This document shows, piece after piece, positions 15,321 through 16,886 of a DNA stretch of 64,000 bases. Under the pieces are notes generated by a model, which was given only the letters and a program-made list of their open reading frames with translations, did not search any database and was not told the origin of the DNA. Source of the stretch: an uncultured delta proteobacterium (GTDB lineage: Bacteria; Desulfobacterota; Binatia; UBA9968); contig CAVUVW010000013.1 in assembly GCA_963745035.1 (NCBI GenBank), positions 128,001 to 192,000 on the forward strand, written 5' to 3'. The position numbers and the translations under genes are program-made. Numbering within the stretch: the stretch's first letter is position 1; the number at the start of each line of letters is the position of its first letter.

Positions 15321-16818
15321 ATGATCCCCGTTTCTGAAAACCATCCCGCCGCCCGATTCGCCTTTGACAATACCTACGCGCGCGAGCTTGAGGATTTCTA
15401 CGTAAGCTGGAAGGCAACGCAAGTCGCGCGGCCCCGGCTCGTCAAGCTCAACCGTGAGTTGGCCGAAGAACTCGCGCTGGACGCCGGCGCTCTCGATTCC
15501 GAGGAAGGCGCGCGGATCTTTGCGGGCAATGAAACCCCCGAAGGCGCGGCGCCGCTGGCTCAAGCGTACGCCGGCCATCAGTTCGGCGGGTTCGTGCCCC
15601 AACTCGGCGACGGCCGGGCGCTGCTCCTCGGCGAGGTGATCGACCGTCACGGACGCCGCCGTGACATTCAGCTCAAAGGCTCGGGCCCCACCCCCTTTTC
15701 GCGCGCCGGCGACGGCCGAGCAGCGCTCGGGCCGGTGCTCCGTGAATATTTGCTCGGCGAAGCGATGCACGCGCTCGGCATTCCGACGACGCGGGCGCTC
15801 GCCGCCGTCATCACGGGCGAGCCAGTCTTTCGCGAGACTGCGCTGCCGGGTGCGGTTTTGACGCGCGTTGCCGCGAGCCACATCCGTGTCGGCACTTTCC
15901 AATTTTTCGCCGCGCGCGGCGAGCAGGACAAGGTGCGCCGCCTGGCCGACTACGTGATCGATCGCCACTACCCCGAACTAAGGGAACACGCCAATCCCTA
16001 TGTGGCATTGCTCGAGCGCGTGCGCGACAGTCAGGCCGCCCTGGTCGCGAGCTGGATGCATGTGGGGTTCATCCACGGTGTGATGAACACCGACAACATG
16101 GCGATCTCCGGAGAGACCATCGACTACGGCCCCTGCGCCTTCATGGATCACTACGATCCGGCCACAGTGTTCAGCTCCATCGACACTCGCGGCCGCTATG
16201 CCTACGCCAGTCAGCCGAAGATCGCGCAATGGAATATTGCGCGCTTTGCCGAGACCCTCCTGCCTCTCATCGATACCGATGGCAAGCGGGCGGTCGCGCG
16301 GGCCACTGAAGCGGTCAATGCCTTTTCGGAACAATACGAACGTCACTGGCTAAAGGGCATGCGTGCCAAGCTCGGGCTGATCTGGTGAAGAGGAGGCCGA
16401 TCTAAACCTCGCCACGGGATTTCTGACCGCGATGGATGGCAGAAACGTCGACCACACGTTGGCTTTCCGTTACCTCGCCGATGCGGCCTTGGGTCGGGAG
16501 GAACCGATCCGCGCGCTGTTTGCCGATCCCTCCGCTTACGATCTCTGGAGCGAACACTGGCGCGCGCGGCTTGCGCGCGACGCGATGGCGCCTTCGGAGC
16601 GAGCGCAGGCGATGCGCCGCGTCAATCCAGCGTTCATTCCGCGCAACCATCGCGTCGAGGAAGCCTTGAGCGCCGCAGTGGAGCGCGGCGATTACGCGCC
16701 TTTCGAGACCCTGCTGCATATCCTATCGCGTCCCTTCGACGATCAGCCCGAGTTCGTCGCCTTTGCCGAACCTCCGCCGGAAGGGCAAGGTCATTACCGA
16801 ACCTTCTGAGGTACCTGA
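15321..16818 (+). CDS. selO: SelO/YdiU protein adenylyltransferase, probably with Sec at TGA 16807-16809; one indel near 16383
   Basis: [60 protein letters not shown]-terminus YRTF-TGA-GT-TGA. Confidence 0.93.
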
Positions 16819-16823
16819 GTCGA

Positions 16824-16841
16824 CGCGTCCGGGCCGACGCG
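16824..16841 (+). promoter_or_regulatory. Candidate bacterial SECIS hairpin
   Basis: CGCGTC-CGGGCC-GACGCG: 6-bp stem, apical loop beginning after a 20-nt spacer from the UGA, G at loop position 2. Confidence 0.65.
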
Positions 16842-16886
16842 AAATTATCACAAGCTTCGTCAGCAAGAACCAAGGATCGGAGATTG

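Follow-up and report, generated by a model that had tools for sequence, protein, structure and literature searches.

A clade of bacterial SelO proteins with a predicted C-terminal selenocysteine and a bSECIS-like hairpin beyond the stop codon

Human SELENOO is a protein of 669 residues whose selenocysteine (Sec), Sec667, lies third from the end. Together with Cys664, this residue forms a CxxU motif (PMC3994087). In bacterial SelO, the C-terminal Cys476 makes a regulatory disulfide with Cys272 of the activation loop, and it is this Cys that corresponds to Sec in higher eukaryotes, according to two reviews (PMC8097203, PMC7278666); the second of these states that the Sec of SelO is replaced by an invariant Cys in all prokaryotes. 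A Sec-containing ‘selenoprotein O-like’ protein from Desulfosediminicola ganghwensis is reported in the deep-Sep study (mSystems 2025, PMC12013277), and a 2026 review lists it as ‘Selenoprotein O-like protein’, PF02696, WP_136798779.1 (PMC13188914). For E. coli, an engineered bacterial selenocysteine insertion sequence (SECIS) placed after the stop codon, ‘not itself translated’, is described as supporting C-terminal Sec (PMC3834832). Here we describe a SelO (YdiU) gene in a stretch of 64,000 nucleotides from an uncultured bacterium of the GTDB lineage Desulfobacterota; Binatia; UBA9968 (GCA_963745035.1, contig CAVUVW010000013.1, positions 128,001 to 192,000 of the forward strand; the whole stretch is hereafter called the window, and positions refer to it). 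In this gene the codon expected to specify the conserved C-terminal Cys is an in-frame TGA, and a hairpin resembling a bacterial SECIS (bSECIS) lies past the next stop codon. Its features are as follows.

15321–16388, + strand: N-terminal part of SelO/YdiU, 355 codons, ended by a frameshift-caused premature TGA (Pfam PF02696, E 2.3e-106)
16381–16385, + strand: extra base shifting the SelO frame, a probable assembly indel (inserted column relative to the relatives; contigs of sequencing runs X1 and X5)
16384–16806, + strand: C-terminal part of SelO in the shifted frame, GEEEADLNL...GQGHYRTF (translation; Pfam SelO profile positions 398–464; alignment with the C-terminal region of PDB 6EAC)
16807–16809, + strand: in-frame TGA at the conserved C-terminal Cys, the proposed Sec codon (Cys in 45 and TGA in 22 of 67 distinct C-termini; aligned with the C-terminal Cys of 6EAC)
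16810–16818, + strand: GGT ACC TGA, Gly-Thr and the proposed true stop at 16816–16818 (Gly-Thr-TGA in 22/22 TGA forms)
16824–16841, + strand: bSECIS-like hairpin, with 5′ arm 16824–16829 CGCGTC, loop 16830–16835 CGGGCC and 3′ arm 16836–16841 GACGCG (fold and conservation)

Our analysis assigns a probability of about 0.88 to the reading that SelO of the clade of this gene contains Sec, decoded with the help of an untranslated bSECIS; we infer selenium incorporation from the genomic evidence presented below. The gene product is supported as a SelO/YdiU protein adenylyltransferase whose C-terminal redox Cys is predicted to be replaced by Sec, third from the end (…YRTF-Sec-Gly-Thr). The N-terminal part matches PF02696 at profile positions 5–340 of 466 (356.8 bits) and contains the kinase-like core with the NTDN motif and an IDYGPC activation loop. 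The C-terminal part, 142 residues in the other frame that takes over from about 16381, reaches 22.1 bits on its own, slightly below the cut-off of 22.8. SelO/YdiU chains of the PDB match the N-terminal part with E values of 1e-79 to 1e-84, and the two window pieces together cover the solved SelO/YdiU structures end to end. The region of the HGVxNTDN and xDYG motifs can be aligned position by position with the solved YdiU chains of E. coli and of the Salmonella type; we take HGVxNTDN and the metal-binding D of xDYG to be the catalytic motifs of SelO. For P0003 (L015), an orthologue with an intact frame, the NF000658 score is 588 bits (cut-off 431), but this protein stays under the cut-offs of both SelO equivalog models of NCBIfam, whose release 20.0 gave no selenoprotein-specific SelO model for the orthologue, only generic YdiU/SelO models. 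The characterised SelO/YdiU enzymes (E. coli, P. syringae; PDB 6EAC, 6K20, 6III, 9JYM) share with the window protein the fold family, the NTDN and D-Y-G motifs and a C-terminal Cys that aligns with the TGA. They are distinct in using Cys at this position. The counterpart of their Cys272 (in ‘...ICNHSD’) is Phe in the window protein, and the subfamily carries a Cys in ‘DYGPC’ instead.

At the 3′ end of the gene, the window reads CAT TAC CGA ACC TTC TGA GGT ACC TGA, followed by GTCGA, the hairpin and AAATT. The HYRTF-TGA-GGT-ACC-TGA ending from which an earlier sequence-only reading of this DNA had proposed a selenoprotein is therefore present as described, and its statement that many bacterial YdiU proteins end YRTFCGT agrees with the best 150 representatives of 50%-identity clusters, 131 of which end CGT. 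Altogether 134 of these distant representatives end C-x-x and the other 16 end otherwise and look fragmentary or frameshifted; none of the 150 ends just before the Cys, a null of little weight with the variation inside each cluster hidden. Closer relatives were compared in a set of 102 loci (L014–L115) drawn from 61 related genomes, named GTDB records and a 401-genome sample of the phylum, from which 67 distinct C-termini were obtained after dropping loci without the C-terminal motif, duplicates and a false regular-expression match (L109). The column of the first TGA holds TGA in 22 of these C-termini and TGC or TGT (Cys) in 45, which together with the 6EAC alignment places the first UGA exactly on the conserved C-terminal Cys, as had been claimed. 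Among the 61 related genomes (including G005 and G035, both without a SelO match and both with selA), a SelO orthologue is found in 25, with TGA in 15 and TGC in 10. In the 401 sampled genomes of the phylum, 18 of which have a match, no Sec-type SelO is found apart from that of the window’s own genome, G000.

The codons after the TGA indicate that translation continues. In 22/22 TGA forms they encode Gly (GGT/GGC/GGG) and Thr (ACC/ACT/ACA) followed by TGA, with only synonymous third-position variation, so translation past the first TGA is indicated, by a test that is short in spanning two codons only. With the TGA read through, 19 of the 22 forms have an open frame of at least 498 codons, the three exceptions being the window (frameshift), L034 (contig end) and L038 (frameshift). 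The open reading frame call ending at 16809 would accordingly be too early, as the sequence-only reading had suspected. Public protein predictions show the same pattern: among the best 120 metagenomic protein clusters, 74 end CGT, 44 stop immediately ahead of the Cys position and the remaining 2 have another end. Sequencing error as the source of the TGA is ruled out by the 22 independent sequences and by contigs of other runs. The contigs of X1, X5 and X15, three runs from different studies, show no difference at 16807–16809 (X15 is an RNA library, and its contig spans 16547–16896); run X2 lacks coverage of 16668–16895 and is uninformative on the TGA. Past Gly-Thr, all 22 Sec forms and most Cys forms as well use TGA as the stop, an observation to which we give no significance.

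The hairpin lies wholly past the proposed true stop (16824–16841 versus 16816–16818), and the geometry on which the sequence-only reading relied holds in full, with G as the second base of a loop that starts 20 nucleotides (nt) from the first TGA and 11 nt from the second. In the 2026 review, the bSECIS model is given as a loop of 3–9 nt, a stem of 4–16 bp, G in the first two loop positions, a spacing of 16–37 nt and a minimum free energy (MFE) of at most −7.5 kcal/mol (PMC13188914); the window hairpin has a loop of 6 nt, a stem of 6 bp, a spacing of 20 nt and −8.5 kcal/mol as an isolated hairpin. RNAfold returns this 6-bp hairpin with a centroid energy of −9.6 kcal/mol on a 44-nt stretch. The bSECIS geometry is found in 22/22 TGA forms. 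Furthermore, a common core, GCGTC-CG[G/T]G[C/G/T]-G[A/G]CGC, is shared by all 22 TGA forms, where it starts 3–5 nt past the second TGA (21 by regular expression; L028, with loop CGGGT, read by eye), and is matched by none of the 45 Cys forms. Pairwise identity amounts to 95.6% in the core, compared with 85% at positions 1 and 2 and 66% at position 3 of the final 20 codons. The short spacer reaches 70%, and the 30 alignment columns that follow the hairpin reach 35%. The case for the hairpin as a SECIS rests on this sequence conservation and on the perfect association with TGA rather than on proven base pairing. A genomic repeat was rejected as its origin: in 7.4 Mb the hairpin has 2 matches, one of which lacks any coding context, and the control gave 0. 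An Rfam scan of 16600–17100 gave no family at the hairpin, only a chance-level snoRNA match (E 1.2), and a promoter and terminator scan at the hairpin gave no match, with no T run following it.

Sec and Cys forms interchange among the relatives, an exchange that the sequence-only reading had put forward as a check, and the Gly-Thr-stop is kept and the hairpin follows the TGA (22/22 TGA forms against 0/45 Cys forms). In a FastTree nucleotide tree, whose alignment excluded the Sec/Cys codon and everything 3′ of it and left out short or fragmentary loci, the TGA forms are paraphyletic: about six Cys lineages are nested among them, and the outgroups, too, have Cys. Mutated relics of the hairpin are seen in Cys forms nested in the clade (L016, L018, L020, L063 and L113 among others), for example ACGAGTCAGGCAGACGC in L016. 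This pattern fits a single gain of Sec near the base of an uncultured soil clade, which would have been followed by about six reversions to Cys with decay of the SECIS. Because the outgroups are Cys forms, Sec in this clade and Sec in vertebrate SELENOO are, on the phylogeny, of independent origin. Loss of the Sec trait was rejected as the cause of the Cys forms: selA is found in 56 of the 61 relatives, holders of Cys forms included, and in 13 of the 15 genomes with a TGA-type SelO, so the reversions would not be due to loss of the trait. In addition, L039 (G004:C9:295137-295385) and L041 (G003:C29:435912-436154), in two relatives, each represent a second, partial SelO C-terminus of the Cys type, with a 97-codon frame, about 3.5 kb from the full gene.

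The sequence-only reading would have been undermined by a genome lacking selA, selB or tRNA-Sec, and this is not the case. In the genome of the window (7.4 Mb, 28 contigs, 92.6% complete), the Sec machinery and a second canonical selenoprotein gene lie at the following positions.

C17:315264-319742: selA, selB and selD in a row (L009, L010, L012; profile matches)
C17:371273-371363: tRNA-Sec (L001), about 52 kb from selA-selB-selD
C14:603436-606417: FdnG-type formate dehydrogenase alpha subunit with a Sec codon, ...HQARL-TGA-HSSTV (L116; 1268 bits)

The tRNA-Sec scores 76.7 bits in Rfam against a cut-off of 47 and is called by ARAGORN as tRNA-SeC with anticodon tca, and selA (592 bits), selB (347 bits) and selD (385 bits) are all above the curated cut-offs. 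SelD is itself a selenoprotein by sequence, with one in-frame TGA (...VKAAG-TGA-AAKLGP) that is followed at 33 nt by a hairpin loop, GUU. In the SECIS of the formate dehydrogenase gene, a spacer of 12 nt precedes a G+C stem of 6 bp, and the loop, GGUCU (5 nt), lies 18 nt downstream of the TGA; the SelO hairpin matches this geometry with a spacer of 13–14 nt, a stem of 5–6 bp and a loop of 5–6 nt. A SECIS sequence common to the selenoprotein genes of the genome was rejected: with GUU at 33 nt in selD and GGUCU at 18 nt in the formate dehydrogenase gene, the geometry is common to SelO and formate dehydrogenase only.

Taken by the established bacterial Sec pathway, decoding would proceed as follows. 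With the UGA at 16807–16809 in the A site, the hairpin 13–14 nt downstream would stand at the mRNA entrance of the ribosome, where its G+C stem of 5–6 bp and its loop of 5–6 nt with G at position 2 would tether SelB-GTP-Sec-tRNA(Sec). This complex would outcompete release factor 2 (RF2) and insert Sec, after which the Gly and Thr codons would be read. The second UGA is 4–5 nt from the stem, which by then would be inside the ribosome and melted, and termination would follow. As termination at the second UGA would occur before the hairpin, the SECIS would never be translated and would represent a natural bacterial SECIS of the 3′ untranslated region (UTR).

Several observations weigh against the reading of a Sec-containing SelO with an untranslated bSECIS. 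The stability of the hairpin is not above that of dinucleotide shuffles (z 0.74; 159/200 shuffles fold at least as well), with z 0.04 for its 101-nt context, so that thermodynamics carries no significance by itself and the hairpin, judged on stability alone, could be due to chance. The energy rule, applied by a strict script that asks for an isolated hairpin of at most −7.5 kcal/mol within the MFE fold, is passed by 11 of the 22 TGA forms; in the remaining 11 the stem is 5 bp long and the energy lies between −5.8 and −7.4 kcal/mol, and 1 of the 45 Cys forms passes the strict bSECIS script. Covariation is not significant, the observed score being reached in 173 of 500 shuffles: across the 22 TGA forms, four of the six pairs are invariant and a fifth changes once, from UA to UG. 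The outer pair is formed by CG in 7 and by UA in 2 and is left unpaired in 13. Two of the 15 genomes with a TGA-type SelO, G009 (93% complete) and G027 (92% complete), gave no selA. The X15 contig is about 95% identical and comes from a relative, and DNA carry-over into this RNA library is possible. Finally, the SelO frame of the window is broken by a 1-nt insertion (+1 frameshift), and its hairpin region carries two single bases that the other 21 TGA-type sequences lack, at about 16822–16823 in the spacer and at 16834–16835 in the loop (a C), so that the window copy itself may be defective.

These last points bear on the alternative that survives best, namely that the lineage does have a Sec-type SelO while the window copy is a real pseudogene, its 1-nt insertion and both hairpin-region extras being genuine. 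Three single-base insertions within about 460 nt against all relatives would fit decay, the neighbouring genes checked by Pfam look whole, which gives no obvious sign of an assembly full of frameshifts, and in one X1 contig, which begins at 16830, the CC of the loop is retained with no deletion at 16834, so that this CC may be real in some strain. By comparison, the inserted column near 16381–16385 is absent from 30/30 other ingroup sequences in an alignment of 40 nucleotide sequences, 31 of them from the ingroup, and the contigs of X1 (record 4; 365 nt with 5 other letters) and X5 (record 28; 364 nt with 8 other letters), each about 98% identical, are both one base short at 16381/16382; these short-read contigs from different studies are the only two that cover the site. 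Because the 30 relatives and both covering contigs lack the extra base, the frameshift probably arose in assembly. The indel aside, the window SelO shows no stops or decay and both of its parts score as SelO. The TGA-type SelO of G027, a relative with long contigs (L038/L040, G027:C14:2683-3115), is likewise split into two frames in its C-terminal part; its split resembles that of the window, as expected of indel-prone assemblies. Both hairpin-region extras are missing from the X15 contig, and they may be assembly errors or strain variants. On balance we regard a genuine pseudogene as unlikely.

A second alternative takes the first TGA as an ordinary stop, such that SelO would lack its last three residues, the regulatory Cys among them, and the hairpin would be another 3′ element acting in mRNA stability, termination or protein binding. 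Gene callers do end the protein at this TGA, as in the 44 metagenomic clusters, the lack of significant covariation and of unusual stability in the hairpin is compatible with such a role, and some RF2 termination is normal at Sec codons, where a recoding efficiency of 30–40% is reported (PMC4513850). An ordinary stop, however, leaves unexplained the in-frame Gly-Thr-TGA with synonymous differences only in all 22 forms, as well as a hairpin that is tied perfectly to the TGA and decays in about six independent Cys lineages. The site also has no T run and nothing terminator-like, and within this genome the formate dehydrogenase SECIS has a matching spacing and loop. We consider this explanation very improbable. 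Read-through of the TGA without selenium, by near-cognate Trp or Cys insertion or by a hairpin-stimulated mechanism other than SelB, has nothing specific in its favour beyond the wobble or alternative decoding known at Sec sites in E. coli (PMC3834832) and is most improbable, given a genome with the full Sec machinery and two canonical selenoprotein genes, a site at the redox Cys, where Sec and Cys classically replace each other and where human SELENOO has Sec (Sec667; PMC3994087, PMC7278666), and a TGA that also serves as a plain stop three codons later.

Comparison with the described systems indicates which aspects of the predicted Sec-containing SelO are new. Vertebrate SELENOO belongs to the same family, carries its Sec at this conserved C-terminal redox residue and has its SECIS in the 3′ UTR. 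It is distinct in that its SECIS is an SBP2-recognised kink-turn far from the UGA, whereas a SelB-type hairpin follows the UGA by 13–14 nt here, and in its CxxU motif, whereas no Cys lies three residues upstream of Sec in the window protein. The Desulfosediminicola protein is likewise a bacterial SelO (COG0397/PF02696) with one in-frame TGA, Cys homologues and a predicted bSECIS-like structure downstream (PMC12013277); it comes from a marine sulfate reducer, whereas the present clade consists of soil metagenome-assembled genomes labelled mostly Candidatus Binatia. The sequence-only reading had asked whether a Sec-type bacterial SelO is already catalogued. By PMC12013277 and the table of PMC13188914 it is, and with the 2025 report the main novelty of that reading is already in print at the family level. 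The engineered SECIS (method of Arner et al. 1999; pET-TRSTER, PMC3834832) resembles the window arrangement in having a UGA a few codons before the stop and a hairpin past it. It differs in being synthetic and derived from the E. coli fdhF SECIS, whereas the hairpin here is natural, of another sequence and kept in 22 distinct species-level sequences. Our search of the open-access literature returned no natural bacterial 3′-UTR SECIS, only the engineered system; no paper linking Binatia with selenocysteine; and ‘selenoprotein O’ together with bacterial Sec forms only in the deep-Sep paper and the 2026 review. What the sequences add is a new, well-populated clade of predicted Sec-type SelO, with a putative SECIS wholly in the 3′ UTR and Sec third from the end.

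The clade also points to a possible redox partner of the C-terminal residue. The Cys of ‘DYGPC’ is invariant in 61/61 loci in which the loop was found and is, by analogy with the characterised enzymes, the candidate partner of the C-terminal residue; Sec and this activation-loop Cys would probably form a selenenylsulfide switch. Residue −5 from Sec/Cys (His in the window, codon 16792–16794) is His or Arg in 21 of the 22 TGA forms and Cys in 1. By comparison, it is Cys (C-Y-R/Q-T-F-C) in 13 of the 18 distinct Cys-type genome sequences of the clade, and in the metagenomic clusters in 64 of 74 Cys forms versus 0 of 44 truncated (TGA) forms. These sequences are related and the counts are thus not independent, yet several separate Cys lineages show the −5 Cys. 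The gain of a −5 Cys in Cys revertants would suggest that Sec needs no local partner and that Cys does. The combined scenario, in which the soil clade independently gained Sec at the residue of vertebrate SELENOO with a natural 3′-UTR SECIS, its Cys revertants repeatedly gained the −5 Cys, and Sec works without a local partner where Cys needs one, is put forward tentatively, with the odds against it as a whole.

The SelO gene is flanked in the window by two further genes.

14415–15296: Amidohydro_2 protein gene, upstream of SelO (Pfam)
17022–17780: RNase H gene, downstream, its product carrying an RNase H1-type hybrid-binding domain at the N-terminus (Pfam Cauli_VI and RNase_H)

Between SelO and the RNase H gene, a block at 16845–16900, 3′ of the hairpin and reading roughly TTTCACCAGCTTCGC-AGCAAGAAC...GATCGGAGATTGCAC, is common to several Sec- and Cys-type relatives and has no Rfam, promoter or terminator match.

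The statement that prokaryotic SelO always has Cys was altered by the deep-Sep study of 2025 for one lineage, to which the present clade would add many species-level examples. The annotation of the family is affected as well, since public gene calls cut these SelO proteins before the predicted Sec, as in 44 of the best 120 metagenomic clusters. A bacterial SECIS entirely outside the coding sequence in nature would furthermore matter for gene finders that expect the SECIS within the coding sequence. For the biology of SelO, Sec and Cys forms that stand side by side in close relatives keeping the Sec machinery would constitute a natural experiment on the role of Sec in the redox switch of an AMPylase.

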